DNA from: Nemertoderma westbladi
Lineage: Eukaryota; Animalia; Xenacoelomorpha
Length of the DNA stretch: 64,000 bases
Direction of reading: 5' to 3'
NCBI GenBank assembly: GCA_032718475.1
Contig: JAUCBJ010006798.1
Span: 1-64,000, forward strand
Shown: positions 12,861-34,460 of the stretch, in pieces
Numbering within the stretch: the first letter of the stretch is position 1
How the letters are laid out: every line of letters starts with the position of its first letter
Notes under the pieces: model-generated
The model's input: the letters and a program-made list of their open reading frames with translations, nothing else
Database searches by the model: none
What the model was told of the DNA's origin: nothing
Position numbers and translations under genes: made by a program

Positions 12861-13821
12861 CCATTAGAAGACCCATTGGAGCGGACCTTTAGAGACTTAC
12901 CGAATTTGACTTCTTTGGACGACAAAGGTGTGGCCACAGCGATTACACTCCGCTCGAAGAAGGTACTTGACTTACCACCTACAGGTAAGCGTGTGACTAA
13001 GGTTAGGAAGCTTACAGGCTCACAGGAACACACTGACACTGTAGAGTTGAAACCGTTACTGCCAGTCGACACATTAGGTGCGGATGGTAAAGGTAAGACC
13101 GTAGAGATTGACGTACTTGGGGACTCAGACAAACCTACTGGAAGGCCCGTGGGCCTACCAAGTCCAGACAAGTATCCACACTACGACTACACCTTACCCG
13201 ATGACGTCACTAACACTTACGTTGACAGGATAGTGAACCTAACTAGATCATGGACTGACGCGTGCCGCAAGTTAGCATGGCTCAAACGATTGAGACAATA
13301 TGCCAGAGGCAAACGCGACTTTCCTAGAAGACTTACCTTAAAGGAAATTGGCCAATGTGAAGTTGATATCATTAGACATTATCAATTGCGATATTTCGCA
13401 CGAGAGTTCACAGCAAGGTAAAGGTAAACAGATTAAGTCTTCACCGATTTTGAGTTGGAGTCCGATTATTTACCGGGGCTTACTTTGTCACAAGTCCAGA
13501 CTCCAAAACATCGACTTTGCACTTGACTTTAGGTATCCTATCATCAAACCGCAACACCATGAATTACAGCGCGCTATGATACTGGACGCACATGTACAAC
13601 TCAAACACGTGGGTAGACACCACTGTCTATCACACTTACGCTCGAGGTTTGTACTGATTAGACCTAGTAAGGCACTGAGTTCGGTAACACGGAACTGTAT
13701 TATTTGTAAGAAGGTGCACGCGAGGATAGGACACCAAGAAATGAGTGAACTACCACTAGCAAGATTACAGGCGTTTAGACCCCCTTTCACTGAGACAGGG
13801 ATAGACTGTTTTGGACCCATA

Positions 13822-15003
13822 CCTAAAGAGTTGAGGTCTCTATAGGGGTGTGGGTAACAGGCGGCGGCGGACTCGTGAGGGTCTGGGGGCACGTTAAATC
13901 CAAATATAGTGCTAGGGAGTCACTGAAGGCCCTCGTGTCTAACGAACCATGAATTGCCATGGTGCCGTGGTTCCGTCTAGTCGGCATGTTGCCGTACTGC
14001 CAGTCCTGTACACAGTAGGGGTGGTGGCATGGCGTGATTTGTGGTTCATGTGGCGTGAACTATGTTTTGTATGTGAGCAACCAGTGGCAGTTGGCTTTGG
14101 GGCTTGGATGGTTCCATTGGCCATCAGCTGTTCCGTTTTTTTGATACTATATGTTATTGTCTCCATGTTCAGCTGATTGGTCTTTGGAGTGTGTTGAACT
14201 TCTGGGTCTCTGAGTCTCTGTTGCTGTAGGTACGTGAGTACACGTGATTGTATGTGTGGCCACTGCGAGTGAGTATGGGAACCCTTGCCAGTTGGACCAG
14301 ACGCCGCTGGTATTAGTAGGACCATATCTCTACTGCGCCCCAGCATACTTTGTGCACACAAAGATATTTTGCCCTGATGGCAAAATAAGGTACTCTCGAC
14401 TCTTTATGAGTTGATACAATTTTGTCCCCTCTGATTTGACCCCGATTTTGTCTTACCCGATTTTGTCTTCTGTGTGTACGTGGTATGTGTTCGATTTTGT
14501 GCTTACCGTTGTGTACTTGATTTCGTGAACATCTGTTGAGTACACGTGTACAGTGACTGGTAAGTGGTTACTTGTTCAGTAGCTTTTGAGCTACAGACAG
14601 TATTGTCTTTTCAATACTGCCGGCGAGGCAGGTGAAAACGAGTCAAAATTCCATGTTGGGTAGCGCAAGCCCACATGGGACAAGACCATCGGTTAGGCCC
14701 AAGGGCGACCTTGGTGCTCGATCGCTATCGACTGGTCCACCTGCCGGTTGACTCTTTGTTATACTTTTGAGTTGGCTCAATGTACAGTCAGGCCACAGTA
14801 AGTTGACAGTAGCCGCCCATCTGGCTACACGTTCGACGAGCTGTGCCGGTGTGATCGGGGGACCGAAAACAGAACCCGGGAAGCATCGGGCCACCCTCCG
14901 GCCCGGTCTGATAATAACATCAGTCGGACTGGCCCCAGGGGTGGTGGAAACACGTCCGCCTCGTGGGTGCGCCTCGGGGAGGAGCCCAGAAGGACGAAAG
15001 CGA
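13822..15003. mobile_element. Unidentified 1.18-kb insertion without TSD in the integrase of B
   Basis: Removing it restores IDCFGPI|IAKRGRVQVKRWG in frame; terminal hairpin CCTAAAGAG-TTGAGGT-CTCTATAGG; many internal hairpins. Confidence 0.75.
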
Positions 15004-15872
15004 ATCGCGAAACGCGGAAGGGTACAGGTAAAACGTTGGGGATTGATCTTCACTTGCATGGCCAGCAGAGCTGTCCATATAGAGCGAGTGACAGACTTGA
15101 CCACCAATGCCTTTATCCTAGCCTTACGGCGATTTATCGCTAGACGTGGATTGGTCAAATCCATATACTGCGACCAAGGGACAAACTTTGTGGGTGCACG
15201 GAACGAAATAACCAGAGCTTTGAGAAAGTTGGACCAAAACCAGATTTCCGAGGAACTACGTCCTCACCGTATTGTTTGGAATTTCAACACTCCAGACAGT
15301 CCGTGGAGAGGTGGCGTTTGGGAAAGGCTGATTGGCTAAATTAAGACAGCTATGGCTAAAGTCGTACCGACGCAACACATCTTGACAGACGACCAACTGA
15401 CGACGTTACTTATAGAAATCGAAGCAATCTTAAATACAAGACCGATCGCTTTGATCCCAGACAATAACGACGTACAGTTCGCCTTGACACCAGCGCACCT
15501 GCTTATGCAGGCGCCGAAGACATTGTTGCCCATTTCGGTACCCGTTGATAGTGACGGATACAGCAACAAGGCTTGGAAAATCACTCAATTGCTTGCAAAT
15601 AAATTCTGGGAAATATGGCAGAAATATTATTTGCCCTCTATTTCGACCAGAACCTCTTGGTATCTAAATACCCGATGTTTAAGACGTGGTGACCATGTTT
15701 TATTGGCTGAAGAAAATCTGAAAAGACGGTTTTGGCTGACTGGAGTCATTTTGACCACGCACCCTACATCTGGTGTAGTGAGGACAGTTACTGTAAGGAC
15801 TATCGACGGACGTACCGTAGATAGGCCTGTACAACGTCTCGTGCTCCTTGAGGAGACTAGAAACGAGACAGG

Positions 15873-17088
15873 TGTTCGCGCTTTCAGACCTTTGGCAGTT
15901 TAACCCGCCAAATTAAGATGTCTTCTAGATATTAAATCGCTTTTTAGCCTATGACAAGTATTTGATTCACTACACTAGTCGAAACCAATCCGTGCGCGAC
16001 CATTCACCCGCTGGATATTCCCGGGAGATTGGGTTCGACGGTTTAATTTTGTTGCTATGTAAGCCTAATGTATTATTCGACTGACAGTATTATATAATCT
16101 CTGACAATATTATTTACCTTCGGGAATATTAACAGTTCCTTTAGGACGTGGCGCTTTATCTACATAAACAGAGTTATGACTTAAACTACTCACAACGATA
16201 TGGCTTAATTATAATTCACATATATGGCGCATTCTTTAGGAATGCTTCTTTAACAGACTCACTCATACACAATGCTGCACAATACTGCACACTAATCTGC
16301 CGATCTTCACTGATTTTAGTCACATATAAAAGAAACACAGACTGACTCATGTAGGGTCTATCAAATAACATTAGATTCACTTCAAACCACCTTAACATAA
16401 GTCACAATCGTTTATCTGTAACCCTTCTCTCTTACCTTCGGTATATCAAGAATATTGGGTTTCGGGGTTATTTATCGTTATTCCAAATATAATAATTCAT
16501 CAACCATGTTATGAAGAACTGACAGTAAATAGCAGTATAACAATATAAAAGTATGCACAGTATTACACAGTATGCAGTGTATGCAGTACTGCAGTATGCA
16601 GTGATTACGAAATTGCAGAGTGTTTGTTTCGTCAGTTAAAGGATATATGTCCTTGTAATTAAACCTACTAGTGTTGAGCTAAAAAGCAGAAAGCACAAAA
16701 CACTAAAAAGCCGTTCTTTCGTGGCTTTGAAAAACTCGTGACTACTGCTCTATACGAGGATACCAACTCCCTTATTCCACGAAGCTCCCGTTCAACACAG
16801 AGAAAGAGCAGTGAGATAGGAAATTTTCAGTTCAGTACTCTGTGATTGGTCAAAATCAAGGCTAACTCAAAATTCTATTGGGAGATACAAAAACAAGGCT
16901 ATGACGCAACCTCCCTAGGCTTGTTGGCCGATTAAACAGAGCCCAGATGCCTGCGTACAGCAAATCAGCCAATAAGCTGGTAACTTGCACTATTTTTAGC
17001 TGTAGATCACTTTGAGAGTATTCTTAGCGACTGGGGGGGAACTGGCCAACAAGGCAAACGAATCAGTTATCCCACAAAAGCTTTTACA
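15873..17088 (-). repeat. 3' LTR of element C
   Basis: TG...CA ends; offset 9535 to the other copy. Confidence 0.95.
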
Positions 17089-20038
17089 CCGCTCCCAGAA
17101 AATGGGATTTAAGTCTATAAAATATACAAAATCACAGTTTCTAAAATATAAAAATACTCTAAACAGTTAGTCTATCTTGCGCGGACGGCGTTTACGCAGT
17201 TTCTTAAGGCTAGCAAGAGTCCTTTTCTCTTTGGGGGAAGCCACTTTACTAGGAGGGCCATAACTCCTGGGTGAAGGGTGCAATATGATTGCATTAAAAG
17301 GTTTGGGTTTACGGTCGGTGTCTCGTCCATTTCGATATGCTTCTCCTCGAGCTGATTTTCCTCCGCTTGTCATGGGATACGTTCGTCCAAAACTCTCGCA
17401 GAGAATAGGGTTTTCTAAGCTTGATATCTTCTTTGAGATTCGAGGTTTCCCAATCGAACTGAGATAAGGCCAATTCGTTTATCGATTGGACTTAATGTTA
17501 TAACTTACGTTTATCTGAACAAACGCAGGTTTCTTTGTTGATCTTTATAGAATAGCGTTTAACTCGTGTCGTACAACGCTCTCCTTCACTTTGATGAAGG
17601 GTTGTATCGCGTTAAACGGGACGACCATACGGTTGGATAATGATATTAGGTGTCTGCGTCATAATCCAGCTAGGTAAGATGGGCGGCTAGCTAGAAATCA
17701 CTGTCGGAGTGTTACCGATTAATTGTTAGGGTAGCACTAGATCTTGAACAGTGAATACCGTCCGCGAGGATCCGCGACACCACCAGGATCGCAGGTCTGA
17801 GGTCCAACTAAGGAATGAGGAGGTTTGACCGAGTATTCCGGGACTCTGATCGTAGGTTTACTCTAGGATCGTTAGAGCCGAGTGAGCATAGGTGATACGT
17901 CAAACAAGTTTCGCTCGAAACTCCAGTAAATATAACGAACACAACTGTGTTTAACACGACGTTTCCGTGGATGTTTATGTCTTTCCGTTTATTGGCTGGG
18001 TCTAGGACATTTATCGTAATAATACCAAAGACGCACGTCTGGTAGGGGAAACACGGGTGATATTTATTTGTTGTTACAACGCTTCTATCAAGAATTCCAA
18101 ATATACGTTGGAGTTACCGCGTCCATTTGTTTCTTTAGTGTCTTTTCTTTCGAGTCGATTTCGAATAGAATTTTCGCATTCGAATTTCAGTTTATGGTTC
18201 CGACTCCGCTGGGCAGGATATATAGTCGACATAGTCCGTATTGTGTAAATCGATAGGATGACCAGTAGTTAAGAAGACCACATACGTACCATTACGCTGC
18301 GTATAAGCTATCAACAAACGCTTGCAAAAGTAGAGTATATCGCTCCCCGATACCAAGAACATCTGCTATCAACTCCATCATGTCTGCTATATATGAGTTT
18401 ATCCACATTATAAGGAGTTTATATTCAGGCTAGCGAGCGTCGCTGCCTACTCCAATTAACCCCCGGACAGTACGAGATCCTCAGCGCCGATGTGTCGTCG
18501 CCGCTGTACTTTCGCCAACGACGTAGCCGCACAACGACAACGACAACCGGCACAAGTCACTCGACTGTCCGTCCCAAAGGCTTAGATGTACTTCAGGTTT
18601 TCCTTGGAGAGTTAGGTTACTTTTACGATTGCGACTAGCTACTGTAAACACACCTTAGTAGTAACATTCGCCTATAAACTCACAAGTACCACACACACAA
18701 CTTGTCACAAATTACACACACTCGGGTCACTTGTCCGTTAGTCAATGCCTTCCAGAATGTCACTATATTATTATGTATCCTTGGATACTATCAGTGCACT
18801 ATTTATTCCCTATGCTATTCAATGGGACAAGCTTTCTATTGTTCTTTTAACTCAATTCTAATTCTAGCGTGGTTGTTGCTATGGTGACATTATGCAAAGC
18901 TAGCGGTAGAATTAGAGCAATTCCAATGCATACAGATCTGGGATGTTATTTAATAGTATTCTTTAATAGTCAATGTTCTGTTTTATACATGACTTTATGA
19001 ATTTTATCGGCTATTGACTATGTTTGGGAGACTTTCGCACACTCATACACATAATAAGATAAATCTCCGCTCCCTTGATCTATTAATTAATGGAATTTTG
19101 GGAATGTTATAAATTGCGTAAAAATGGCAATTTATTAAATTCATTAAAAGGCATGAATTTAAATTTATTCCCTGAAATTTTATTATTTGATAATTAAATT
19201 GACATATTTTGATTCTAGAATATGTCTGGGGACACAAGATCCTTAATTCTATGACAATTGTCTTTTTAAGAATATCGGTAAATGCTACGATATCTTAATT
19301 GACTAGAATTGCTGAAGGATCTGAATTTTACAGATTTTGATTTATTAGATTTGCAAATATTAAATAATTAATATTTGAGATGGGCACCGATTTATTCCAG
19401 AACTTGTCTGGGGACGTTAACCACTGATTCTAGAATTTGTCTTTCAAGTATATCGGTGGGTGCCGCGATATCTTAATCGACTAGAATTACAGATGGTCAA
19501 AGGGTTTAACAGATTTATTTTGCGTTATACGCTACTGTTAAAGGGACATCACGCTACTATATGTATTATTTAATATACGGTATGAGAGCAATATCGCACG
19601 AAGCAATGTCAGTGTGAAGAGGCAAGTCGTTTCCAAGGTCTACCCAGAGCTTGGTTTAGCCGAGACACGAGGATCTGAACTTTGCATTCCTAATACTCTG
19701 CCTACCAATAATACTTGAATATAGTAGTGGCTTTATTGTACTTTAATAAGTACGGACATTTCATCTTACTGTAGTTACGTATTTGTAATGTAATACGGAC
19801 AGTAAGGAAGAAGGAAAAGAATTATTTCTTGCCGTCGCATTAAATATAATATATACGTAATTAAGTAATAAACGCGAATATATATTGCACTAATCTACTA
19901 AATAATCGCTAAAATAACATTCTACTGAATAAAATTAAAGAAAACGATTATAATAAAATTACATAGTAATACATACATAAATATAAAAATAATAAAATAA
20001 TATAAAATAATAGAGTCACACACCCACTCCATATGTTG

Positions 20039-23000
20039 TTACGTTATGGAGTCCCTAGATGTTTGAAGGATTAGGGAGGTGGTCGTGGGAAGAGAATCTT
20101 GCCTTCCACAGTTTCCGGAGAGTCCTCCATTCCCTTCCGATAAACACAAACGACCGACTGGGTGATTGAGTCGCTGCATCCTGAATACAATTCCAGGTTT
20201 CCTCTTCGTCCTGGAATAGTGACGATAGAAACATCGCTCAAAGTATATGACGGCGTCACAAAGCCGATTCCAGGAGCTATAGTGGTCCGTCGCTCTCTGC
20301 AGGAGAGGTGAGAGTCCCTGCGAGACGTCTGATGTTCCAGAGCTCCAATCGCTCTCTCTGATCTTCATGAAGGATCCACTCGCGGAGGGGAGGCCCAGAT
20401 CCACGGCGTCGTCCCTGGCAACATGTAATACCGACAGATCTATCCCGGGTTCAAATAACTCCGATCCACCCGTCCGGGTTTCAGGTTCGACTTTCTCCGC
20501 TCCCTTGGCTGGTCTAATCTCAGTCGGAGTAAGATGGGGAGGCCATTCATTCTCCTTACTCAGGAAGTCGGGTTCACCTAACCGGTCTATAGTATCTGTC
20601 AGTTCTTGAGGAGTTGCTCCTCTGGAAGCGATGTCCGTTGGATTAAACTTCTTGGGGCAATATCTCCATTGATCTACATTGGAGCTAAGATTGTCATTAT
20701 CTGAGGAGTGTGGTGTTCCCTCAGTTGGGTCGTCTCCCTCACTAGTATCATCTTCCCATTCACTCACCTGGCAGACGCGATCTTGAAGCAGTCTTTCCCT
20801 GAGCGTTCTACCGGAAGGTCCAGTAAGGTACCAACCTACTCTAGTTCTTACCGCATAGGTCTGTAGTGGCTGCGGTTGAGCAGGCCGTTTCTCTAATGTC
20901 TCCAGCGCCTCATGCGCGTTTTGGCCGATGAGTATTTGCACTCCAGGATAATCAGTCTGGAATCGAGGTATGTTAAGATGTTGGATGCTCTCATCCTCGT
21001 CCCAATTATAAAGGTCTGCTTGAGTAGTAGCGAAGTTCTTTATAGCCACCATTTTCACTGACCTTATACTGTATTCTCCTAGTTTATCCTGTGGAGTGGA
21101 CAACTCACCTATATAATAGTCGGCAGCTACAGTAGAATTCCAAACCTGCATGATCCCTGACATGTTTAGCTTGGTTCGGAACTTGGGTTGTCCAGCAAAG
21201 ATGACTTCGGCTAGTTCCCTATCGATGAATGTTCCTGTGCTACCGGAGTCCAGGAGGGCGTTCACTATATAGCTCTTCTGAGGTCCGTGGACCCGTAACT
21301 GGACTACAGGAAATTCTCGGATTCCTATATTGGAAGTTGGCGCTTTCCAAGATGGTTGTTGATCGGAAGTAGTTAAGGTAAGGTCGCTGTCTGTGTCTTT
21401 CTCATACACGAGTGCTCGATACACTGCGGTGGTGTTTATTAGGTAACAGGATTCGTTTTGGTCGGAGAACTCGTCCGTATAGAATCCTTCCATCTCAGAT
21501 TGATCAGTGTCGTTCACATCACTGAATTGGACATGTAGTTCGGACTCACTTACCTGACTCGGGCTGTTTTGTTCGAATTCCGTGTGCAACAAGATATGAT
21601 GTTTTGCGCCGCACTTTGCACACCTTGCGTCGGAGTTACAGGTTCGCCGTTGGTGTCCTCGTCTGAGGCAATTATAACACAACCGCTTATCCCACATGAC
21701 TTCACGTCTATCCTCGAGTGATTTCCTCAGGAATTTATCACACGCATTTAAACGGTGGGGCCCGTCGCACAGCACACATTTCGGCTTGATGTTACTTACT
21801 TTAACCTGTGCTATGTGGTGCACACTTGTTCTTTCCTCGGGCTTTCTCACCTGAATTCCTTTAGGAGACGTAGGAGGGGTTTTTTGTACCGGTTCCCTTC
21901 TGTCATTGGGTCGAGACTTGGATTTACTTACCTGTTCTTTAGGCATTTTATTGACATAATAAGGCCTGTCAGTGTCTTTCCCGCTGTCCTCTCCTTGAGA
22001 GGTTTGGCTTTCACCGTCGTCGGTATAACATACTGGTGTTACCCTTCTCCTAGAAACGGGTTTCTCACTTACCTTGTTTTCCAATGTCTTCTCTCTGGAC
22101 TGCCTTAGGAGCTGTAATTTCACTTCTCTATCTAAGAATGACATGAGATCAGTCATGGTAGGGTCTCGTCGTTGTTGTTCCATCATATATAACACCTTCT
22201 TATCCCAGCGTGTACCTACTCCACCCTTGGGCAAAGCAGATGCTAAGGCTCTTACAACCATAGAATTCTGGTATTCATGAGACTTACCTAGCCAATCTAA
22301 TTGTCTACAGATCTCCTGAATCTCATCGGAAAACTCTATAATCCCGCTGCTAAGAAACTTTCGGGGCGCCATTAATTTTGCATACAAATACCCAGCTATG
22401 TCATTCCTATTACCATACCTGATGTTTAGTGTATCCCAAACTTGTCTTAATCCATCTGGATGTCCAATAAATTTTAACGCCATTGACTTGGGAGGTCCTT
22501 CCAAACATTCGATGAGGAATCTAAGTTTCTCTCCGTTAGATAGTACAGAGGTGAATTATATTTTAATTTGTTTTGTGAACTACTGTTTATTTAAATATTG
22601 TCTGTAAATTGTGTGCGGTCATTCTGGAACAAAATATAAGAGCCCTTACAGGCTCACATCAATCAATCAAAACAGAGTTCTGTATGTTATCTTTGTAATA
22701 TTCATTAAAAGGTAACCATTTCATCTCATCTCCATTGAACTTGACAATCTCTCCAACCTTTACCGCTTGCCGGGCTTCGGTTCTAGCCATTTGACGCGTA
22801 AAACTTTCTTGGGCCATCGTGCTATTTAATATCGAGTTATCGGTATATAAATTTCTCGGATTATGATCAGTTCTATAGGGAATATCATTATCAACAGGTC
22901 TATAATTACCCTTAATAGGGTTCACTATAGGAGTTTCTACTTCGCTAGCAGTATAAATGCGTGTAGGCTCCACACCTTGCGCATGAGATACTTCAGACCT

Positions 23001-23219
23001 AACAGGTTGACACATTGTTACAGAGGGTGGTGGTATACCCTTTTGGGTATTTACTAATTTATCGCGTTCAAGCGCGATACTTTGCTGCACTTCTTGCAAC
23101 TCTAGCCTACTTTCCCTTACTGTGCCCTTGAATTGCTGGACAGTCTCCTGCATCTGCCCGAGCAGGATATCCATTGTATCTAGTAGACTGTCTGACAGGT
23201 TCTGCTTAGTATCAGACAT
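20039..23219 (-). pseudogene. Gag-protease ORF of C fused to remnants of RNase H and the integrase C-terminus; split by a 121-bp insertion
   Basis: KFNGD..W..F, WDTLNIRYG, CVLCDGPH..C, CYNC..GH..C, ALLDSGST; jumps to WRYCPKKFNPTDIASRG, then to HPVGRLCL. Confidence 0.88.
22551..22671 (+). mobile_element. 5'-truncated non-LTR retroelement 3' end inserted in the gag of C
   Basis: TSD ACAGAG (22545-22550, 22672-22677); GAGCC-CTTACA-GGCTC stem-loop followed by a (TCAA)n tail; removal restores the gag frame. Confidence 0.75.
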
Positions 23220-24551
23220 GACTAGGTATGTACAGTTGAATGCCTACTGCTATATTACAGTCTAAGCAAGTCTAGTAACTCAGTATGAACTGCTAGCCTA
23301 GTAATTAATTACCGTTACTGCTACTCAATGTAGCGAGATATATATATAATATATTAGAATACCGGTATACTTATAGTATATATAACTATATAAGTATTAT
23401 TACAGACTAGGTTTATCTCCGAATACCGGTATAATTTTAGCATAAAATATATATAAATATATAATAGGCCTATCGGAATACCGGTATACAGCTTACAGTT
23501 TATAGTATATATAATTCTGAAATAGAATTAATTACAAGTACCGGTATAATTTCAGCCTAGATTTATAGAAATAAAGATAATAGGCCTATCGTAAATACCG
23601 GTATATCAATTGTTTCAAATAATTGAATTTCTGTTACTTTAGGGTTACTTGGTTACTCTAACTTACTTTATTACCGTTATTTAAGCAGTAATCCAACTGA
23701 TATTAAGACCTAATGGTTGTATGGTAGGCCTACTATTTATAAATCTTTAGATTTGATTTATAATATATATATACCCGTTTTAATGGGTTTTGTCAATGTT
23801 TGAAATAAATGTTATTATTTCTGGGGAGTAATCACTACACAAAGCGGTGCGCTTTCAGTGAAGTGTTACTTATGAGACACTAAAACAAATAATACTAATT
23901 TACCTAAGTTACTTAATACTACAAATTACGTACAATTCGGGTTGAGATTACAATCTCTAAATAAACACAAAAATTTACAAAAAACACAAAATACGAATTT
24001 TTAGGGTAATTTTACAAGAAGTCTACAAACCAGCCTAACAAAGGGTTAGAATACCGGTTATTACAACGGACAGGGTACTACGGTATTTGAAATAATAAGT
24101 AGTAGTAAATACACTGCGTTGTCTAGATAGGAAAATACCACCGCCTGACGACCTATAGCCGTATCGCTATAGGTACTACGTTATGTATCACGGAGTGTTC
24201 CTACCTAGAAGTTAATAGAGCTAATCGAATGTGCCTATCAACCACTTTACAACACAAATATAATGCCTACACTTACTTTCGGAAAGCACTGTACACTAAA
24301 CCCTAAATTAGGTACGAGTACTTGTACAACAGATAATCAGTAGTTAAATATACTTGAACAGCTAAAAGAACCACGGCATCTGCTGGAGTGACCGATGCAC
24401 AAAATCACCAGTCTTTACCTACGCCGAGCAGCCCGTGTAGTACCGGGGTTAATTTAACTATAGCGGTATGTATAACAAACACAATTACTGTAGGAACAAA
24501 CTTGGGGAATGAATGTTGCGGATAATCGCATAAACTCTGAATAATAAATAT

Positions 24552-25110
24552 TACGCTACGCGTACAAACTACTCAAACAAAATACAGACAGAACACTGAC
24601 AGACTACTATCAAGCCTAAACAAACTACGGTATATGCAGACTCCGAAATGATTAGGGAGTATGCGCTCTAACCCAGTAGTGCGACTTATTCTTTAGTTGG
24701 GGGATTACCTTACAGCGTTCGCTGCCCCTACTGCCTAATCGTACTTAATCGGACAGATGATCTACACACGCGGCAATCCGTTCAGACCTAATAACAGCCA
24801 GACAACTATCCAGCCTACAAATTATCTAAATAAAATTATACGCTACCCGTACAGACTTACACAAACAAAGTACAGACTAAACGATGGCAGACCACTCTCA
24901 AGCCTAAATAAACCACAGGACATGCAGACTCCGAAATGATTAGGGAGTATACGCTCTAACCCAGTAGTGCGACTTATTCTTTAGTTGGGGGATTACCTTA
25001 CAGCGTTCGCTGCCCCTACTGCCTAATCGTACTTAATCGGACAGGTGATCTACACACACTGCAATTCGTTCGGACTTAACAGCAATCAGACAACAGCTCA
25101 GCCTACAAAT
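24552..25110. repeat. Tandem duplication (~288-bp unit x2) in the 5' leader of C
   Basis: TCCGAAATGATTAGGGAG...GATCTACACAC occurs at ~24642 and ~24930. Confidence 0.85.
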
Positions 25111-25395
25111 CGTCTGTACTATCTGATCAGGCTTACACGCCTTCTGTTCAATACTGGCCTACAAATAAATAAAACTTGACAGAAATAAGTAAACCATATA
25201 AAGGTATAAGGGGTGATCAATCCCTAATCCCCTAAACAGCCTACCGGTATACAACAATCAAATCGAATAATACTAGTGTACTTATACGGCAGTACCGGTT
25301 AGAACAGTTAGGCCTACTGACCTACAGAGTGTACCGGTTCAGGTTTACCGGTTGACCGGTACTTTCAACTTTATTGCTTACTGCAACAAAGAAGC

Positions 25396-25407
25396 TATAT
25401 CCTTTAA
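25396..25407 (-). promoter_or_regulatory. Non-tRNA primer-binding site of C, complementary to an LTR-internal segment
   Basis: Minus-strand TTAAAGGATATA directly follows the LTR end; the LTR sense strand carries TATATCCTTTAA (16636-16647; one G.U variant at 26171-26182). Confidence 0.72.
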
Positions 25408-26623
25408 TGTTCGCGCTTTCAGACCTTTGGCAGTTTAACCCGCCAAATTAAGATGTCTTCTAGATATTAAATCGCTTTTTAGCCTATGACAAGTATTTGA
25501 TTCACTACACTAGTCGAAACCAATCCGTGCGCGACCATTCACCCGCTGGATATTCCCGGGAGATTGGGTTCGACGGTTTAATTTTGTTGCTATGTAAGCC
25601 TAATGTATTATTCGACTGACAGTATTATATAATCTCTGACAATATTATTTACCTTCGGGAATATTAACAGTTCCTTTAGGACGTGGCGCTTTATCTACAT
25701 AAACAGAGTTATGACTTAAACTACTCACAACGATATGGCTTAATTATAATTCACATATATGGCGCATTCTTTAGGAATGCTTCTTTAACAGACTCACTCA
25801 TACACAATGCTGCACAATACTGCACACTAATCTGCCGATCTTCACTGATTTTAGTCACATATAAAAGAAACACAGACTGACTCATGTAGGGTCTATCAAA
25901 TAACATTAGATTCACTTCAAACCACCTTAACATAAGTCACAATCGTTTATCTGTAACCCTTCTCTCTTACCTTCGGTATATCAAGAATATTGGGTTTCGG
26001 GGTTATTTATCGTTATTCCAAATATAATAATTCATCAACCATGTTATGAAGAACTGACAGTAAATAGCAGTATAACAATATAAAAGTATGCACAGTATTA
26101 CACAGTATGCAGTGTATGCAGTACTGCAGTATGCAGTGATTACGAAATTGCAGAGTGTTTGTTTCGTCAGTTAAAAGATATATGTCCTTGTAATTAAACC
26201 TACTAGTGTTGAGCTAAAAAGCAGAAAGCACAAAACACTAAAAAGCCGTTCTTTCGTGGCTTTGAAAAACTCGTGACTACTGCTCTATACGAGGATACCA
26301 ACTCCCTTATTCCACGAAGCTCCCGTTCAACACAGAGAAAGAGCAGTGAGATAGGAAATTTTCAGTTCAGTACTCTGTGATTGGTCAAAATCAAGGCTAA
26401 CTCAAAATTCTATTGGGAGATACAAAAACAAGGCTATGACGCAACCTCCCTAGGCTTGTTGGCCGATTAAACAGAGCCCAGATGCCTGCGTACAGCAAAT
26501 CAGCCAATAAGCTGGTAACTTGCACTATTTTTAGCTGTAGATCACTTTGAGAGTATTCTTAGCGACTGGGGGGGAACTGGCCAACAAGGCAAACGAATCA
26601 GTTATCCCACAAAAGCTTTTACA
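25408..26623 (-). repeat. 5' LTR of element C
   Basis: Copy of 15873-17088; CCAAT-like boxes around 26380-26510. Confidence 0.95.
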
Positions 26624-27547
26624 ACAGGAGACTACAAATCTCCACCCAATATTGGTAAATAGATGTGGGACCTTGATTGGCATTGGGATTTATTCATTTC
26701 GTATTTTCTTTTACTAACCACAGCAATTAATTTAACTGTGTGTTTCCTATTTTTTACTATTCCGCTGGAGTTTCTGACAAATATATATATATATTTTTTT
26801 CCATTCAAATTTTAACATTGAAACATAATTTCCTGGAATACCTTAATCATAATACTATAAATACTTACATTCATTACTATTTATATATGTTGCAGTTTGA
26901 GTCACGCACTAGCTATGCTATGTGCCTTAAACTGTAGATATACTGAGCTACATAAATATTAGTTTATTTGTGCAGTAGGCCCATACACCATTATATTCTG
27001 TAATGTCTGTTATGTAAATTAAATTAAATGAATTAAATGAATTAAATGAATAAATGAATAAATGAATTGGCCGCCACATAGACCTACTGTATTTTAGTTA
27101 TTTGTATTTGTATTACTGTATGTGCATTTGTAATCCTCTTCACTGTAGATAGAGACAGCGGTGGAATTCCATTGTCTTTATACGTGAACATGGAGGGTAG
27201 TACCCTTATGTATCACATAGGAGCGGGATTGTGTGTACAGTAGGAATGGAATTCCACTTGGAACCCACAAGTGAGACATTTTTTCAAAAATTATTAGACA
27301 AATCCATTTATTTGGATTAAAATTTAAGAAAAACGATTCTCCAGTGAAAGCAAATTCTAGAATACAGCTAGATAATAATTAAAATTGGGGAGGACAAGAG
27401 CGGATGGAAGGCTTGCGAGCCTACCGATAAATTTTTTTTGGAAAAGAAAATCGGCCTTGTTCTACGTAGTCGTGTCTACTATTATTTAGACCAATTAATT
27501 CTCGACTGCACTATTTTCTTGGGAAATGTAGCATGGGAAATTAAAAG

Positions 27548-27745
27548 GTGAGTATTTTAGACTCGCGGCTAGTTTACCCGGAATTCGTTTTTTTATTGGC
27601 ACATTTTTTGGATTAGGAGCCAGTGCGAAATCACGCGAACCCGAAATCATTAGGCAAATGGGTTGGGGTTTAGAGCAGAGTTGAGCCAAAAGCCGACAAA
27701 CTCTAAGTCACCTCACATCTAACCTCTATTTTGTGCTTCATCTAG
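27548..27745 (+). other. Predicted 198-nt intron in the leader of the accessory ORF of B
   Basis: AAAAG|GTGAGT donor, CATCTAAC branch site, pyrimidine tract, TAG acceptor 42 nt before the ATG; same signals and spacing in E. Confidence 0.65.
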
Positions 27746-27787
27746 TAGAAACGTAACGATATGTAACCACATATATATTCGTATACG

Positions 27788-30700
27788 ATGGAGAAGATGT
27801 ATAAAGAGTTACGTCAAGGGTTTACGCAAGAACAAGAGCACCAGGCGCCATTCAATCGTTATGGAGCTAAAAACTTTAGTGTGTTTGGAGTGGAGAGTAT
27901 GGCTAGGAGTACGGCCATGCTCGCTAAATCCAAGGCGGACCCGAATGTTACGCGACAGCGGTTGGACGCATACAACAAAAGAACGGAGGAATTACGCGTG
28001 GAGTTCAATGCGTTATATCCCTACGATGCGTTATGCGACGCTAGCGACATTTGCGAGGATCCAGACACCGAAATATGCCGATTGTATCATACGCTGCAAT
28101 ATTTGACAGTAAACGAACCCTTACCTGCAGCTAGAGACGAATTTGAAGGAATGCATCTTTATAGACGCGCTCAAGGAGCGGATCCAGAGACCAAGGACGC
28201 GTTCTCCATATACAAACTGTTTTATAAATGTGGAGCGTGTATGCGCGAGCAAGACAACGCGATTCCTATGCGGTTGAACTCGGAGAACCCCGAGCCGATA
28301 TTAGCGCGATGTTCACACCACCAAAGTCTACGTTACCAAGAAGGCGGATACCCTTTGACAAATCCGTATCATTCGTTTAAAATGAGTGGACCGAACGCGG
28401 GTGAGATCGTTATTTACGAACCCAAATTAGTCGAACCAGACGTCTACAGCATGGTAGTGGACGAGTCTAATAAGTCGACACAAGAGAAACGGGAAGCTTT
28501 GAGCCTCTACAGGGCGTACAAGGCGTACGAGAAAGGCGAGATCGAGGAGTTCGGTGGAAGGCTCGCGAGCCTACCATTCTATTGGATATCCCACGATCAA
28601 ACCGAACCCAAGGAGATGACACCCGAGCTCTTCGATAGTATCACCTTTGCTCAGCGTTTGTCGCAGAGACTACAGATACCTCATGTCGAGATGACGCGAG
28701 AACCTCAGCCCCATTCTACTGGAGCGATAGTACCGGTTGCGAGACCAACTAGTTTTCCTATTAGTATACCAACCTGGAAGGAGACAACTTACGAGATCCC
28801 TATAGTTGAACACCCGGAGATCATCTCGAACCTGGATTTCCTCCCATCGGTTACCTTTGGTGATGTGTTAGAGTCAGCCGAGTTGCGTAAAGTAATAGTT
28901 CAAAAAATCGTACGCAACGTGCCTCCACATATTATGGACTTTAAGGAAGTGGATCGCGCGGGGACGGATATCGCACCTTGTATCTTGCGAGGATATCTGA
29001 CGAAGACGATTCGATTATGGATCGGAGTTGGAACGTTTGAGACCGACACCGATATCGCGACCAATTGGACCGGTAAACCTATTAGTTTCGATGATGAAAA
29101 GTCGATTGGGAGAATTTGGAACCCTACCGACGATTTACTCGACGATTGGGACGTGACTAGCCGATCTCTGAAAGAGAATGGTTATATGTTTTACGATAAT
29201 GAAGGAGGAAGCCATCAGCAAAGCCTCACTTCAAAGACTATACAGATTAGACCACCAGATGGCGTGTTACATGTCTTCAGCCGACAGAGGAGTGATAGGA
29301 AGATGCCTATGCCGGAAGGAACGACGCAAAGACACGCGATGATAAAACGGATAGTTAAATCCATGGACCTGGCTTGTAGCATAGAAGCTAGGATGTTGCC
29401 AAAGGCCGTGCGAGACGTTGTGTTGGACAAGAGCATCGTCAAGATCAGATCCGGTGTACGGGATGACCTTATTAGCGATTTTGCAGGGATGCCCACGGAA
29501 GAGGACCAATTGCCTACGCCATACGTGGATACTAGACCATTGTTGCTTTGGGCTATTGAGCAAGGATATTTTAGGGAGTATAACACGCTAAAAACTGGGA
29601 CGGGTTATATCTCATATCTAATGTTCAGTTGGGATTACAAGGAGAGTAAGAGGAACAAATACATGGACGTATACAGAGAGGGAGATACCCCCGGCGTAAA
29701 CGAGTTCGAGTCACAGTTGAAGTGACGAGGTTGTGTGTATTGGGCGATTACTTCACCTCCGCGGATAATCTTGCAATACTATTTAGCGATAGAATCTTCG
29801 GTTAACGTTTGTTTCATCGCGGACGTAGTATCCAGAACCCTAAAGCGACACCCGTTATGTCTTGGCGAAGGACATACCTTTTACGATGGAGGAAGGACGC
29901 ATACTGATGTATTCCGACGATTTCTCCAACCCTTTTATAACACTGCTGCGCACTGCGAAGTTTTCAAGCGAGCGGGACTTAGCATTTTCAGGGACGTCTA
30001 TCTCTCTCACGCGGCAAGTCTAGTCGACAGACCGTCGATGTTAACGTTAGTACCCTATGACGGGGAACGCCACGTGGAATTCGAACGCCCGGAAGGATCC
30101 TGGAAGGCTCGCGAGCCTACCGCCCATCACGACGATGTGGATCCGACCGAGTTGGCGCTAATAGACGAACCGTTACAGCAACTCATAGAGATAGGGGAGA
30201 ACCTTCCGAGGAAGACGCGAACTGAGATACGCGAGTTGGAGAAAAGCGATGCCATGGTTTGTGTACAACCTACGGAGACGAACATACCGACTGACCCGGA
30301 TGATGAGAATTATCACGTGGACGGTAGCGCTTGCCCCATCGGAGATCTCATCTATGAGCGAGTTTGGTATCCTGCCAACACTATTTGTGGCAGATGCGGA
30401 GCAACTGGCCATCGCAGTGCGGAGCGAAGCACATATCTCTACCGGATTTAGTATGCAACTGGTGCGGGGATCAGCGTTCGCACACTTTCTACACTTGCTG
30501 GCGTTTCGTGGCGCAGTGTACTTATTGTAATATTAAGGGCCATAGGGCATCCGAATGTCAACTTAGAGACGTCCCCTATGAGCACATGTCAGTTAAAATC
30601 GTTCGACAATTATTCGACCATTGGGAGGATCTAGCAGACGAGCATGTATCGACGCAGCGACGCCGCTTCCCTATGAGAGCACATTTGGGATTTTGGGCCG

Positions 30701-31533
30701 TAAACCCTCTCATAATGTCAAAGGAAGGATATGTATCGGCTATGCCTCAGTATGATGAATTGTTGGAGGTATTGGATATATTGCCGTTGGACAGTGGATT
30801 CAAAGTTGTGCGGGACTATTTCTTACAAGTGCACCCCGACAACAAGAATACTTGGAACTTTCAAACTGTGGTGAACAAGATTACCGCCGGAGAATTCGAT
30901 AAACTGCGAGTTGAACAGCGGAATCGAGGAGCCTGGCATTCGATAGCTTGGGCATACCGGAGCGCATTTTATCACAAACGCGTAACCTCGTGTATTCTGG
31001 ACGAGACCGACGTTTTGCGTGAGACTGGCTTCAAGGCCACGCCATTAGCAGAAAAGACGCGTCACCCACAGGATGATCAGCAATTTCGTATACTCAAAGC
31101 CCAGAAGGCCGGACAAGAGATAAAGAAGATAGTGAATGTCGCCGAGAGGACGACATCGAAGTCGCAAATCCGGATGACTCGGGGCACGGTTTCCCTTGCT
31201 AGAGAACCACGCGGAGGGACAGGATACGCTTTGACTGAACCCATTAGGATTCAAACGACGTCAGAGAGCGAGGTGTCAACGGACGGAACGGTCCTACCCT
31301 TTCGACTTCCTCCTAGCGTTGTAGAGACTCGATCCGATGTTAAGCCGACAGTTGGAATCGGACGAGGATTTAGAGGATTGAGCGCACGACGGATGTGCAA
31401 AACTCCCGTCGTCCCCTTTCCTAGCGTTTTGGAACCACCGACGACTCGACGCCGAAGTCCGAGCCCAGTTCGACCTCGACCACCCCCCAATCGCACTAGA
31501 GGACGTGGACGAGCCCGCTCAGCGAAGGAATAG
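27788..31533 (+). pseudogene. Accessory ORF of B (~1250 aa if repaired): unknown N-terminal domain, DEDD/DnaQ-like 3'-5' exonuclease, three CCHC knuckles, basic tail; in-frame TGA at 29723 and a frameshift near 30425
   Basis: FYDNEGG..IQI..LHVF..LPKAVRDVVLDKSIVK..GVRDDL..YVDT..YW..LQYYLAIES follows the WRN/RNase D exonuclease motif order; CGRCGATGHRS.., CNWCGDQRSHTFYTC, CTYCNIKGHRASEC. Confidence 0.8.
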
Positions 31534-31569
31534 GAAGCGAGGAGAAGGAAGGCTTGCGAGCCTACCGAT

Positions 31570-31640: not shown

Positions 31641-32184
31641 ATTATGTTTGAATGTTGGGTTTGGAGGAGCGAGATATGGAAAGGAAGGCTTGCGAGCCTA
31701 CCGTTAGCAATTGGTGCTCAGGAGAAGATATCCAGACCAGCAGGACGAACTTTTAAGATCGTCAGGAGGACTCTTTAAGACTCATTTTAAAGTTATTAGC
31801 GCATTGTGTTTATATTATATTTGAACTGATTTAATTTGGTGGAAGTTTATTATGTATATTTACAATATGTAAAGATTTATCGAAAGAGATTTGAAATTAT
31901 TTGTTTGATTTATTCTAATTTGTTTTGATTCTAATTTGTTTAATTTGCTTACCTTGATAACCGAAAGCCTTTTTTGTATTTTAGGCACTAAAGTTAATTA
32001 GTAAATTTGTATTTGTATGTACGATCGATTGTATTTACGCCGTATCTGCAATATTAAGTATGCAATAATTAGATAGTGATTATATTTTATATTTTAGGCC
32101 CCACCAGTAGATTTAGAAGTAGTTTGTAAATATTTTATATTTCGATTGGTGAAAACAGTCTTACTTACTGTTTTCATGGAGCGG

Positions 32185-34460
32185 TGATGAATTATTTCAC
32201 TATAAGATAGCATTTGTAGTTTAACTTTAACGTAAAAACTTTCGAAAATCCGACGCATTTTGATTAAGTTACAGTAATGTAATATGCCTATTCATATTTG
32301 TACACATAAATCCCTTAGGTACTCTCGTGGCGTAGTGGTCAGATGGTTAAGGCGTTGGTTACATTACATAGGTTACGAGTTCGAATCCCAGTCGGGAAAT
32401 TTGTATTTTGGGGCCATTTATTTTCATTTGGTGCAAATTGGTGGACCAATGAGAAGCGTACAACGTAGCGAAAGATGAGCCAGGCCAATCATAGGGCATA
32501 AAATATCTTATTGCTCAAATGTGAGGCTATGGAAAATTCTGTTAGGATTCCATGTCCCAGATTAGTGTAAGGGCCGGATTGCGTTGAACGATGAGCTGGG
32601 CCAATCATAGGGCATAAAGCACTTTATTGCTCAAATGTGAAGCTGTGGAAAATTCTGTTTGGTTTCCATGTGCGATATTTAGTATAAAAAGGCCGGTTTG
32701 CCTTCGGTTATCACCCCCTTATAACACCACTTCTTAGATCTACCTTATACTTCTAAATTGTTGTTAGTTTATTTGGTTTCTTGTTGAAACTTTGTTAATC
32801 TGTTTGATAAATCCTTTGTAAAACTGTAAATATACTGCAAATTCCTGAACATGTTTTCTTTTGGTCCAACTTCGGGACAGCCAAACATCGGGAAGATGGC
32901 AGCCTAGACCGTTAGGCCGTCAGCAACGCAGGGGAAAGATGTCCACAACACGCTAGCGCCCACATTGGATTTGACCGCGCACCCCCTTTGCCCTTCGAAA
33001 TACTCCACTTGCCATGCAGCGCCCGCTTTGTGAGAAAGGTAAGACTTTGTTCGACGCCCTTGCCCGCCGTAAGACCTATAGATCAGGGTAAGCGTGACGC
33101 CGTCCTGGACGCCGCAAATTTTAGGATCAAATAATTATATTTTAGACAGGACCCCCCCCCCCCCCCCCCCCCCCCCCTTGTCAAATCCTACGAACCCCTG
33201 GGTTAACCTGTACTTCCTACAGGTGCGAACTATTGCCATTCGTCAGTACGCGAGTACATAGGTACGGACAGCATATGTTCCATAATTTAGTGATTCGTAG
33301 TACTGACTGTTTGGTACCGGTTCGCTTTGTAGAACGTACATTAGTACCCCCCCCCCCCCCCCCCCCCCCCCCTGTCTGGAGTTAGCTATTTGATCAGGCA
33401 AGGAGTATTTCTGCTACCGGCACACTGCTTGGCCTAGGGAGGTTTATTTATATCCTACCGCGCCTTGCCACGTACTGATAGGTATTGCTGCTAACTACCG
33501 CGGCAACAAAGTTCTAGAATTAAATTTGTATACCAGATCAGCTAACGTACGGTAGCGATTAACCCCTATTTCTTATCTTACAACCAGAATCTGGTATTAG
33601 TGCCGATTGACGTCATTTGTGAGTATAAAAGTTCTACAAAACGCGACTAGTTTATTTTAGTAGCTAGCGCACGGTATCATTTCGGTCAGAAAATCACTAA
33701 AACCTAGTAAAAGAAATACACGAAATTGTTTTATTTGTAACACACCCACACACACACGCCCTAAAACATATTCGCCCTTAGAGTTCTACTAGCTATAGCG
33801 CACTATACATTATTTTAGGTAGAAATTATCTGTATTTGTAAATTAGGATCTGATATTTAGTTGCGGCAAGAGAGAGTATTTCATTTCGTTATTAAACTGT
33901 TGGTTCCTGTTCAGCAGTATTGTTACATTTAGGCTTGACCCTTTAGACTGATTTCGTACAGGGGGATCAGTTATTGTTACATTTAGGCACGACCCTTTTT
34001 CGACTGATTTAGGATTGAATCAGTGTTGTTACGCTAGGTCTGTTAACCCACTAGCTCGTATATAAACCATATAAATCACACCGCGGCAAGTTACTGTATT
34101 TAGGACTGTCAGTGATAGTTAGGATTCGCTGCGCGGGGATTGTTTTCCCGTGAGTTTGGTCTGTTACTGTAACTGTACATCTGCCTCACCGGTTAGAGGA
34201 CAGGTATCCTTTTGTCTAGTACGTAGGCATTAGACCCGCTCACGTACATAGAATAGATACTAGGCTCTGTTCCTCGCCAGTAGTCGTTTGTGTATTGTAT
34301 CTGTTTGTTTAGATATCCTGGACTGGGATTTGTTGTCAGATACTGTACGAGCCCGTATACATTACTAGAGTCTCATAGTAAGATACATCGTTACTAGGAT
34401 CTGGTAAGCGGTATACTACTGGACCTTACAGTTTCGATGTTTGTTTACGCTGGTTTTTCA
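32185..34460 (+). repeat. Probable 3' LTR of B (~2.3 kb); right boundary inferred
   Basis: Follows PPT GGAGCGG (same as in C and E); CCAAT boxes in a duplicated ~118-bp unit; TATAAAA near 32683; ends TTTTTCA; length similar to the E LTR. Partner LTR not in the window. Confidence 0.6.
32323..32397 (+). other. tRNA-like (Pol III A-box/B-box) segment inside the LTR of B; SINE head or tRNA pseudogene
   Basis: TGGCGTAGTGG A box and GAGTTCGAATCCC B box at tRNA-like spacing; cloverleaf not intact. Confidence 0.55.

Follow-up and report, generated by a model that had tools for sequence, protein, structure and literature searches.

A third gene under purifying selection in two BEL/Pao elements of Nemertoderma westbladi likely encodes a diverged DEDDy-type exonuclease domain

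We found that two retrotransposons of Nemertoderma westbladi, B and E, carry an old third gene, ORF3, that has been held by purifying selection. Both lie in a stretch of 64,000 nucleotides (contig JAUCBJ010006798.1, positions 1 to 64,000, forward strand; hereafter the window). The protein very likely contains a remote exonuclease domain of the DEDDy (RNase D/EXD2/WRN-like) class, to judge from profile comparisons, and has three CCHC zinc knuckles. Our reading of the whole, an old selected third gene that likely encodes a DEDDy nuclease with knuckles and most likely trims RNA against silencing, is offered tentatively.

On sequence grounds, B (plus strand) and E (minus strand) are sister BEL/Pao (Belpaoviridae) retrotransposons (Table 1). 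The assignment was made by a Pfam scan of E, which matched DUF1759 (E 4e-10), Peptidase_A17 (E 1e-18) and DUF5641 (E 3e-17), and B was placed by the identity of its pol to that of E. The reverse transcriptase, RNase H and integrase pieces of B pol were 52-58% identical to E pol, as against 30-40% to the pol of the nested element A. In both B and E the polypurine tract ends in GGAGCGG and is followed by the TG of the LTR; the two LTRs had no similarity to each other except for one 16-nt match. Because the two LTRs of E match (80.7% identity over 1024 columns), its ORF3 lies inside the LTR-bounded unit. For B, the window holds the polypurine tract and the 3' LTR, with the 5' LTR beyond it, and the end of the 3' LTR is taken from its TG...CA boundary and a drop in contig depth after about 34430. 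Contigs from two sequencing runs connect the end of B pol directly to the DNA on the right of the nested element C (loose ends at 26627); therefore, ORF3 belongs to B. Summed contig depth in X1 was 17,500-36,700 over ORF3 and 27 past the LTR, which indicates a many-copy family and gives no copy number. One run, which we guess to be RNA, covered ORF3 in short pieces only and is no measure of expression. In the spacer ahead of B ORF3, a CTAAC 69 nt and an AG about 45 nt upstream of the ATG form a possible splice acceptor, and the protein might be made, like env, from a spliced subgenomic RNA.

Table 1 Features of elements B, C and E in the window
Feature	Position	Strand	Remarks
B pol (RT end, RNase H, integrase), broken	11229..15872	+	upstream part interrupted by nested element A
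Nested BEL/Pao element C	15873..26623	-	sits within last codons of B pol; 5-bp target duplication
End of B pol, then non-coding spacer	26624..27787	+	spacer ~1.1 kb
B ORF3	27788..31533	+	~1,240 codons; ATG at 27788, in-frame stop 29723-29725, frameshift near 30420-30450
N-terminal Cys/His domain, B	28052..28342	+	B/E 63% identical
Probable diverged DEDDy-type 3'-5' exonuclease domain, B	29105..29850	+	of its parts, profiles show the ExoII core only
ExoI candidate FYDNE, B	29189-29203	+	putative
ExoII core, B	29400-29620	+	profile-supported
ExoIII candidate YLAIE, B	29780-29794	+	putative
Three CCHC knuckles, B	30386..30558	+	30386 (frameshift-cut), 30454-30498, 30517-30558
Arg/Pro-rich basic tail	30900..31533	+	~210 residues; B only, absent from E
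B polypurine tract and 3' LTR	32170..34430	+	tract ends 32184; LTR from TG 32185 to CA 34430, 2,246 nt
E 3' LTR and polypurine tract	47104..49298	-	LTR 49282-47104, 2,179 nt
E ORF3	49551..52737	-	runs from 52737 to about 49551; several frameshifts
E motifs		-	FYDNE 51296; KVGSG 51020; YLVLE 50679
E CCHC knuckles		-	50076, 50004, 49944
E gag and pol, degenerate	53520..62414	-	DUF1759, Peptidase_A17, DUF5641; LINE fragment within integrase
E 5' LTR, visible part	62862..64000	-	80.7% identical to 3' LTR

An initial annotation of this DNA had described a long same-sense ORF between pol and the 3' LTR of both elements, colinear, homologous, well diverged and long selected, and this description held. 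The two copies are colinear, with 37-63% identity per piece (tblastn, E 1e-35 to 1e-108) and 42% identity across 922 aligned codons. Over these codons pN was 0.43 and pS, which is saturated, was 0.80; identity at the first, second and third codon positions was 0.52, 0.62 and 0.32. Among the 40 listed of 822 variant rows, 26 sites fell in ORF3; of these, all 11 polymorphic in other copies of B's family were third positions, whereas 13 of the 15 private to the window copy were first or second positions (Fisher p 2e-5). We conclude that ORF3 is under purifying selection because all of the listed polymorphic sites are third positions. The ORF3 copies of both B and E in the window are pseudogenes. 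That of B reads on in the same frame past its stop as far as the frameshift and continues to its end in a changed frame; the stop was absent from contigs spanning the site in three DNA runs. A joint that skips 28347-31403, seen in two runs, shows that the family also has copies with most of ORF3 deleted. ORF3 is thus an accessory gene and not a core part of the element, because deletion copies exist and BEL/Pao neighbours that lack it have moved recently. Neither A nor C shows a long frame from the end of pol to the LTR, and their LTR pairs are 100% and 99.9% identical, respectively.

The broken window copies and the deletion derivatives are what would be expected if ORF3 were a captured fragment of a host gene or an unrelated, functionless passenger. 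This explanation, together with that of an env-like protein, is already largely refuted, and we regard it as most unlikely: synonymous sites are saturated while the proteins retain their identity, variation among copies is biased to third positions, and two large protein searches returned no host-gene relative. Hydropathy found no transmembrane stretch in six ORF pieces (the highest 19-residue Kyte-Doolittle mean was 1.48, and the N-termini are charged), so ORF3 is not env, as had been proposed.

The N-terminal Cys/His domain contains, in both copies, the motifs RLYH and YKLFYKCG.CM to which attention had been drawn, and it had no match in Pfam, NCBIfam, PHROGs or PDB sequences. The three CCHC knuckles reported earlier were found as well: those of E are all exact (C-x2-C-x4-H-x4-C), and B has two whole knuckles (one exact, one with x5) and a first that is cut by the frameshift. 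The zf-CCHC match in Pfam had an E of 0.009, below cut-off. The knuckles are followed by a W/F-rich block that is common to B and E, and no HRDC domain was seen.

Searched alone, ORF3 of neither B nor E had a hit in Pfam, including PF01612, or in NCBIfam, PHROGs or PDB sequences. A HMMER search of 1.84 billion proteins, with no length limit, using a B+E profile built without the knuckles, returned two proteins, P0002 and P0003 (E 2-3e-4). P0002 has the layout S-I-D-V-E, LP...KVGS..I..D, LDTQ and Q-L-Y-Y-I-Y-C-E, then three CCHC knuckles and, weakly, the W/F-rich block. Its exonuclease part reached Atlas scores of 0.94-0.95, with 25 of 30 matches in PF01612-bearing clusters (34% of the members of the best cluster carry PF01612), and B's own domain scored only 0.75-0.76 and gave no lead. 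P0002 and P0003 themselves matched PF01612 weakly, below cut-off (best E 0.037). When a five-row profile was run against 177,635 PDB sequences, RNase D (E 0.58) and EXD2 (E 0.77) were the only matches at E <= 10. Compared by hhalign with 36 bacterial EXD2/WRN-like exonucleases, this profile gave a probability of 92.9% and B+E alone 73.8%, values that none of 60 column shuffles reached. A profile of 48 such bacterial enzymes ranked E ORF3 first of the window's 266 six-frame peptides (0/500 shuffles); B alone scored 1.3 bits, and 2 of 500 shuffles were equally high. Word-seeded searches found nothing for the first 645 residues of B among 7,995 candidates (354-1,129 residues long), and only P0002 itself for the P0002 exonuclease part among 1,414 candidates; scans of loci in metagenome contigs, viral contigs, prokaryote genomes and plasmids turned up no relative.

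Single-sequence folding gave a pLDDT of 32. A model seeded with the ExoII core only placed a helix, a strand (YMFY) and two further strands ahead of the core, and YYLAIE fell within a single long helix. The 21 chains that matched this model best, out of 48,161, were all of 3'-5' exonuclease type by title and aligned through the last helix, and its residues 104-263 matched DnaQ-type domains at Z 5.0-5.7, with the N-terminal strands unassembled. The mean pLDDT of this model was 54 (30-55 over ExoI and ExoIII), and its matches, with Foldseek E of at least 0.033 and best Z of 5.5-5.7 at an rmsd of 4-5 Å, fall below the tool's clear level. The fold evidence is also partly circular because the core of the model was seeded with exonuclease rows. 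Profile and fold comparisons returned almost exclusively DEDDy nucleases (RNase D, EXD2 and WRN), at modest scores; no subfamily can be named for ORF3, because RNase D and EXD2 score alike. The cellular enzymes of this class (PF01612: EXD2, WRN, Nibbler/Mut-7, RNase D and NrnC, and the inactive EXD1 and Egalitarian) align with ORF3 over the ExoII core, LP...L.d..I.KVG..I..D...P..vD...G, and their order of strands and helices agrees with that predicted by the ORF3 model. By contrast, the ORF3 domain is only ~10-20% identical to them, has insertions of ~25-35 residues ahead of both the ExoII core and ExoIII, carries Glu for the ExoIII Asp and is fused to knuckles. These data suggest that ORF3 very probably contains a DEDDy exonuclease domain, although a remote one.

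The DEDDy pattern had been called established. For the ExoII core this was borne out by the profiles, but automatic aligners did not place ExoI and ExoIII consistently, and Pfam gave no match. The ExoII pattern in B and E is LP...K(I/V)(R/G)SG...D, and its K, G and D columns are common to 34 bacterial rows; B has Arg before Ser-Gly. ExoI and ExoIII were placed by conservation, spacing and predicted secondary structure, and on this basis FYDNE is probably ExoI and Y-x3-E, which reads Y-L-(A/V)-(I/L)-E in B and E, probably ExoIII. MFYDNEGGSHQ is the sole window of 11/11 identity between B and E in 759 aligned columns, and an ExoI profile/PSSM scan ranked the D-x-E window of P0002 first of 637. 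The ExoIII candidate was located through its spacing from a conserved Trp and the modelled helix, and not through a profile score. Separate profiles and PSSMs for ExoI and ExoIII missed the proposed sites in both B and E, and only one of several MAFFT runs aligned ExoI properly. Plain BLOSUM scoring favours another register, in which ExoI has no acidic residues (10 vs 0 for B, 5 vs -4 for E). The last residue of the ExoIII candidate is Glu, and not the Asp of Y-x3-D, in B, E and P0002; the Y-x3-E had been quoted from both window copies, and we take it to be a family feature because P0002, an independent distant relative, also carries it. We found no published data on replacement of the Klenow ExoIII Asp by Glu, and we lean slightly towards an enzyme that would retain activity with Glu at the position of the last Asp.

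The same Glu, together with the register that leaves ExoI without acids, would fit a protein that keeps the DEDDy fold but has little or no nuclease activity left and serves, like EXD1 or Egalitarian, as an RNA-binding adaptor that carries, localizes or shields the element's RNA. The fold matches include Exd1 and Egalitarian, ~1 Z or less from the best, and a passage of the bdelloid rotifer study considered below places inactive DEDD derivatives in piRNA biology (PMC5408684). However, three proteins that have diverged widely all retain D-x-E, the ExoII Asp and the Y-x3-acid, and no stretch of ORF3 is better conserved than the D-x-E block. In the alternative register, moreover, the two strands after ExoI are left without a strand-like partner, and the third strand of P0003 aligned to DGVLHVF of B. 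We therefore consider an inactive adaptor unlikely.

Our preferred reading is that the ORF3 protein may combine a diverged 3'-5' exonuclease of DEDDy type with three CCHC knuckles and would act in trans as an RNA-trimming enzyme that aids the element against host small-RNA silencing, in line with the counter-defence role put forward in the initial annotation. By analogy to Air2 with Rrp6, the knuckles could bind single-stranded RNA and pass its 3' ends to the nuclease. The substrate might be small RNAs of the host or the precursors of these, or else element RNA tagged for decay.

It is also conceivable that the protein is packaged with the RNA of the element through nucleocapsid-like knuckles and, within the particle, edits or trims cDNA 3' ends or RNA:DNA hybrids; an element of unusual length would thereby gain the proofreading that reverse transcriptase lacks. 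The length of E is at least 16.9 kb and that of its LTRs 2.2 kb, in comparison with 4.2-10 kb and 0.2-1.2 kb stated for Belpaoviridae (ICTV profile, PMC8742986); retroviral nucleocapsids are the best match of the P0002 knuckles; and WRN, NrnC/diDNase and polymerase proofreading domains top the fold list. We find this improbable, as part of the length of E is ORF3 itself and the LINE fragment, ORF3 is a separate frame for which no way into the Gag-Pol polyprotein is apparent, A and C transposed although they lack it, and the fold ranking does not separate DNA from RNA enzymes. That a clade of oversized BEL/Pao elements packages its own D-E-D-E exonuclease to edit reverse-transcription products, like ExoN of large RNA viruses, seems quite improbable.

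The other of the two roles suggested in the initial annotation is trimming of a self-primer by the nuclease, in an element that dispenses with tRNA priming. In its favour, no TGG-type tRNA primer site was seen immediately downstream of the 5' LTR in A, C or E (E is degenerate and was checked by eye); in Belpaoviridae this site is 18 nt long and of tRNA-Arg/Gly type, and that of B would lie beyond the window. This proposal is disfavoured, and we rate it very unlikely, because ORF3 and a self-primer candidate do not occur together in A or E. A lacks ORF3, yet its post-LTR sequence has a perfect 14-nt match to its own LTR (-16.3 kcal/mol, 0/60 shuffles), whereas E has ORF3 but no such match in the 1,139 visible LTR bases (39/60 shuffles were as good). 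This evidence is not final, because E is old and the window misses ~1 kb of its 5' LTR.

A precedent cited in the initial annotation is real: a DEDDy-exonuclease ORF3 occurs in the bdelloid rotifer LTR retrotransposons Juno1/2 and Vesta2/5, and also in Terminons (Rodriguez, Kenefick and Arkhipova 2017, PMC5408684). In both cases a third, same-sense, non-env ORF after pol lacks a transmembrane segment, is family-specific and has an RNase D-like DEDDy domain, a probable one here, with one catalytic Asp changed to Glu. The carriers differ, Juno and Vesta there and BEL/Pao here, as does the catalytic set, DEED there and a putative D-E-D-E here with the change in ExoIII. ORF3 of B and E has ~1,240 codons, the Cys/His N-terminal domain and three CCHC knuckles, whereas 'CCHC' occurs 0 times in the main text of the bdelloid paper. 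Within its genome, the rotifer study saw no departure from neutrality for these ORFs (PMC5408684), whereas purifying selection is visible here, and no bdelloid ORF3 (Juno, Vesta, Athena) was among the matches of our protein searches. The elements conform to Belpaoviridae in gag-pol order, polypurine tract and third-gene position and, by the Pfam scan of E, in Pao peptidase A17 and DUF1759/DUF5641. Some members of that family have an env-like third gene (PMC8742986), whereas the third gene here is not env-like; in addition, the element and its LTRs exceed the stated ranges, and no tRNA-type primer site was seen adjoining the LTR of the degenerate E.

The concept of an exonuclease third gene has already been published for bdelloid rotifers, and we found no DEDDy third gene of BEL/Pao in print. 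BEL/Pao third genes have so far been described only as env-like and of unknown function; the third gene here is probably of enzyme type, and it carries a sign of selection that was not detected in the rotifer study. Its architecture, a Cys/His domain, a putative D-E-D-E nuclease and three knuckles, is common to at least one distant protein. ORF3 adds weight to the idea that exonucleases have been captured repeatedly in different LTR superfamilies. An enzyme that edited cDNA would have implications for the possible length of a reverse-transcribed genome; one that acted on small RNAs would give an animal retrotransposon an anti-silencing nuclease of its own.

The window holds a nest of BEL/Pao LTR retrotransposons from an animal genome, in which the minus-strand element E is nearly complete and two young insertions, elements A and C, interrupt the plus-strand element B. 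C is inserted in the last codons of B pol with a 5-bp target duplication. Because contigs of two runs join the B pol end directly to the DNA right of C, the sequence from 26624 onwards belongs to B, whose 3′ LTR lies in the window and whose 5′ LTR lies beyond it. B and E are sisters, as their pol pieces are 52–58% identical, versus 30–40% to A. As the initial annotation stated, both carry a same-sense accessory gene, ORF3, as a third gene between pol and the 3′ LTR, in the env position; in E, it lies between the two LTRs of the element.

Features of elements B and E, with the polypurine tract of element C
Feature	Position	Strand	Length	Remark
E 5′ LTR, part in window	64000–62862	−		LTR comparison
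E gag + pol	62414 to 53520	−		DUF1759, Peptidase_A17 and DUF5641 matches
E spacer, pol end to ORF3		−	780 nt	
E ORF3	52737 to about 49551	−		
E polypurine tract	49283–49298	−		Between ORF3 and 3′ LTR; ends GGAGCGG
E 3′ LTR	49282–47104	−	2,179 nt	80.7% identity to E 5′ LTR
B ORF3	27788–31533	+		
B polypurine tract	32170–32184	+		Same kind as that of E; ends GGAGCGG
B 3′ LTR	32185–34430	+		TG...CA; contig depth collapses at its end
C polypurine tract	17089–17105			Ends GGAGCGG, before 3′-LTR TG as in B and E

Several features surround these genes. A and C are very young (LTR identity 100% over 555 nt and 99.9% over 1,216 nt) and nested in B pol (1–26623); C looks non-autonomous because most of pol is missing, the protease being joined to a late fragment of RNase H. 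B pol carries a repeated 'SPDC/PDVS/PPDF' tetrapeptide insertion between the RNase H and integrase domains (12400–12900), where E pol has a shorter, different repeat. The E integrase holds a C-terminal fragment of a LINE reverse transcriptase (54479–55000; DUF6451, E 2e-5), and a second LINE fragment lies at 40880–41401. The plus strand also bears a separate BEL/Pao gag fragment at 44069–46700, with Cys/His motifs at 45057–45815 and no LTRs in the window. On the minus strand, single-frame fibrinogen C-terminal (34946–35638; E 1e-52) and LamG/concanavalin (39626–40432; E 7e-8) domains probably represent exons of a host gene that lies between the elements; a tandem array of about 39 copies of a 63–65-nt unit (36400–39200) separates them.

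The two ORF3 copies align collinearly from their start codons through the zinc knuckles and beyond, and their 42% protein identity over 922 aligned codons, compared piece by piece with each piece in its own frame, bears out the diverged homology first proposed. Identity by codon position was 0.52, 0.62 and 0.32, with pN 0.43 and a saturated pS of 0.80. Comparison of four public runs over 26300–34700 revealed a family with many copies. We used 40 of 822 variant rows, picked by support rather than at random, 26 of them inside ORF3, and separated polymorphic from window-private sites at 95% of depth in one run (X1). Among these ORF3 sites, those varying among family copies were all third positions (11/11), whereas 13 of the 15 at which almost every other copy disagrees with the window copy were first or second positions (Fisher p 2e-5). 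The pattern is one of selection, as the initial annotation had argued, in active lineages and of neutral decay after insertion. The in-frame stop of B is private to the window copy, being absent from covering contigs in three DNA runs, and ORF3 is a pseudogene in B as well as in E. In contigs of two DNA runs, a joint with 9 letters of other sequence jumps 28347–31403 and so removes most of the gene; a further joint skips 28054–28283. These are amplified deletion derivatives of the family. None of the ORF3 pieces has a hydrophobic stretch (the highest mean over 19 residues is 1.48), so ORF3 is not env, as already suspected.

Alone, neither ORF3 matched Pfam, NCBIfam, PHROGs or PDB sequences, and a word-seeded search of 5.8 billion proteins and the Atlas were both unsuccessful. 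A B+E profile built without the knuckles retrieved two of 1,835,955,588 proteins, P0002 and P0003 (E 2.2e-4 and 2.9e-4); the alignments cover the proposed nuclease, and each protein matches PF01612 below its cut-off. P0002 (648 aa, from one contig of an ENA assembly) carries a D-x-E strand, LP...KVGS..I..D, LDTQ, GLG, Trp and Q-L-Y-Y-I-Y-C-E; three CCHC knuckles and a W/F-rich block come next, and the knuckle region also aligns with that of E (pairwise E 5e-6). The nuclease part of P0002 scores 0.94–0.95 with PF01612-bearing Atlas clusters. The architecture and the unusual Y-x3-E, both noted initially, are thus family traits. A five-row profile found only RNase D and EXD2 at E ≤ 10 among 177,635 PDB sequences, each insignificant alone. 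As an outside reference, 120 bacterial loci with an EXD2/WRN-like motif yielded 48 proteins of sufficient length, of which 36 diverse ones were aligned. A profile of the 48 ranked E ORF3 first among the 266 peptides of the window (0/500 shuffles); for B ORF3 alone, 2/500 shuffles scored as high. Against the 36 aligned exonucleases, hhalign gave the five-row profile a probability of 92.9% and the B+E profile on its own 73.8%, and 0/60 column shuffles came near either.

These profile matches cover the ExoII core only (LP...K(I/V)(R/G)SG...D), so this part of the DEDDy pattern, initially called established, stands, whereas isolated ExoI and ExoIII profiles did not land on the sites proposed for either element. 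The labels ExoI, ExoII and ExoIII follow the DEDD literature; the bacterial alignment, with its conserved D, E, D, Y and D, served as their anchor. ExoI as FYDNE was recovered in one joint alignment and not in others, and the pairwise score favours a register leaving ExoI without acids. We favour FYDNE because it sits inside the sole fully identical 11-residue window among 759 columns, because an amphipathic helix comes before it and two strands with the I-Q-I pattern after it, and because the third strand of P0003 aligns to DGVLHVF of B. A structure model of the B domain, with X at the stop and bacterial rows seeding only the ExoII core, gave a helix (20–35), strands at 39–42 (YMFY), 56–60 and 67–71, and one long helix over YYLAIE, at a pLDDT of 54 overall and 30–55 over these elements. 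EXD2 was the top Foldseek match, albeit at an E value as high as 0.033, short of a clear match. With VIA-align, residues 104–263, which include the unseeded last helix, matched NrnC, WRN, RNase D, polymerase proofreading domains, Exd1, Egalitarian and Nibbler with middling Z (up to 5.7; rmsd 4–5 Å over about 110 residues), and the best 21 of 48,161 chains were all 3′–5′ exonuclease-type domains by title; the comparison is partly circular because of the seeding. A DEDDy-type fold is likely, and the proposed FYDNE and Y-x3-E register somewhat less so. ORF3 is probably a remote member of this fold; we leave it outside PF01612 and every subfamily, because it does not reach the Pfam threshold and reads Y-x3-E instead of Y-x3-D.

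The nuclease may be active, with the balance tipping slightly that way; a dead nuclease serving as an RNA adaptor is a less probable alternative. Canonical CCHC knuckles bind single-stranded RNA, and those of P0002 match retroviral nucleocapsids and, weakly, Air2; they would form the RNA-binding arm of a 3′–5′ nuclease. The best-conserved domain of ORF3 (63%, B versus E) is its N-terminal Cys/His domain, rightly singled out at the outset, which matched nothing in Pfam, NCBIfam, PHROGs, PDB sequences or the B+E profile search of 1,835,955,588 proteins. Upstream of ORF3 (B 27719–27790, E 52737–52823), both elements read ACATCTAAC, AG about 22 nt later, ACGTAACG, an AT-rich run and then ATGGAGAAG. 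The shared CTAAC...AG just before the ATG is possibly a branch point and splice acceptor, and we infer from it a spliced subgenomic RNA from which ORF3 protein would be made apart from Gag-Pol; CT(A/G)AC occurs three times in each spacer, so that the shared pattern could have arisen by chance.

A and C moved recently without ORF3, and copies that have lost most of it were amplified, so the gene is dispensable in cis and for BEL/Pao elements in general. An optional retroelement gene is usually retained through conflict with host silencing. We tentatively propose, at somewhat under even confidence for the whole chain, that ORF3 encodes a 3′–5′ nuclease with an RNA-binding arm, produced separately from Gag-Pol, which would act in trans on RNA 3′ ends, the task that suits it best, and be kept by such conflict. 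A role inside the particle, in editing the products of reverse transcription, would fit the length of E, at least 16.9 kb versus 4.2–10 kb for the family (PMC8742986), and seems improbable. Trimming of a self-primer, suggested initially, is very improbable because a perfect self-primer candidate occurs in A, which lacks ORF3, whereas E shows the reverse. In A, the 14 nt directly after the 5′ LTR (556–569) are the exact reverse complement of LTR stretch 116–129 (−16.3 kcal/mol; 0/60 shuffles as good); the match in C is weaker (2/60). A is thus a candidate for Tf1-like self-priming in BEL/Pao, a family described as tRNA-primed, for which our literature search returned no self-priming paper by title.

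Exonuclease capture has the precedent initially named: PMC5408684 describes ORF3s with RNase D-like DEDDy domains in Terminons and in two groups of bdelloid elements, Juno and Vesta, a case also cited in PMC6338049 and PMC6431247. For BEL/Pao, the ICTV profile gives only gag, pol and env-like genes (PMC8742986), and 'exonuclease' occurs 0 times in the main texts of three BEL/Pao surveys (PMC3118150, PMC8220671 and PMC6238403). In the literature searched, no exonuclease ORF3 was seen for BEL/Pao, although one could still be present in supplements, Repbase, GyDB or subscription journals. We propose that ORF3 of B and E works in the same way as those of Juno and Vesta. In the bdelloid report, DEDD is changed to DEED, activity is not demonstrated and there is no departure from neutrality, whereas ORF3 of B and E is under clear selection. 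Relative to the rotifer genes, the superfamily (BEL/Pao), the architecture and this clear selection are new.
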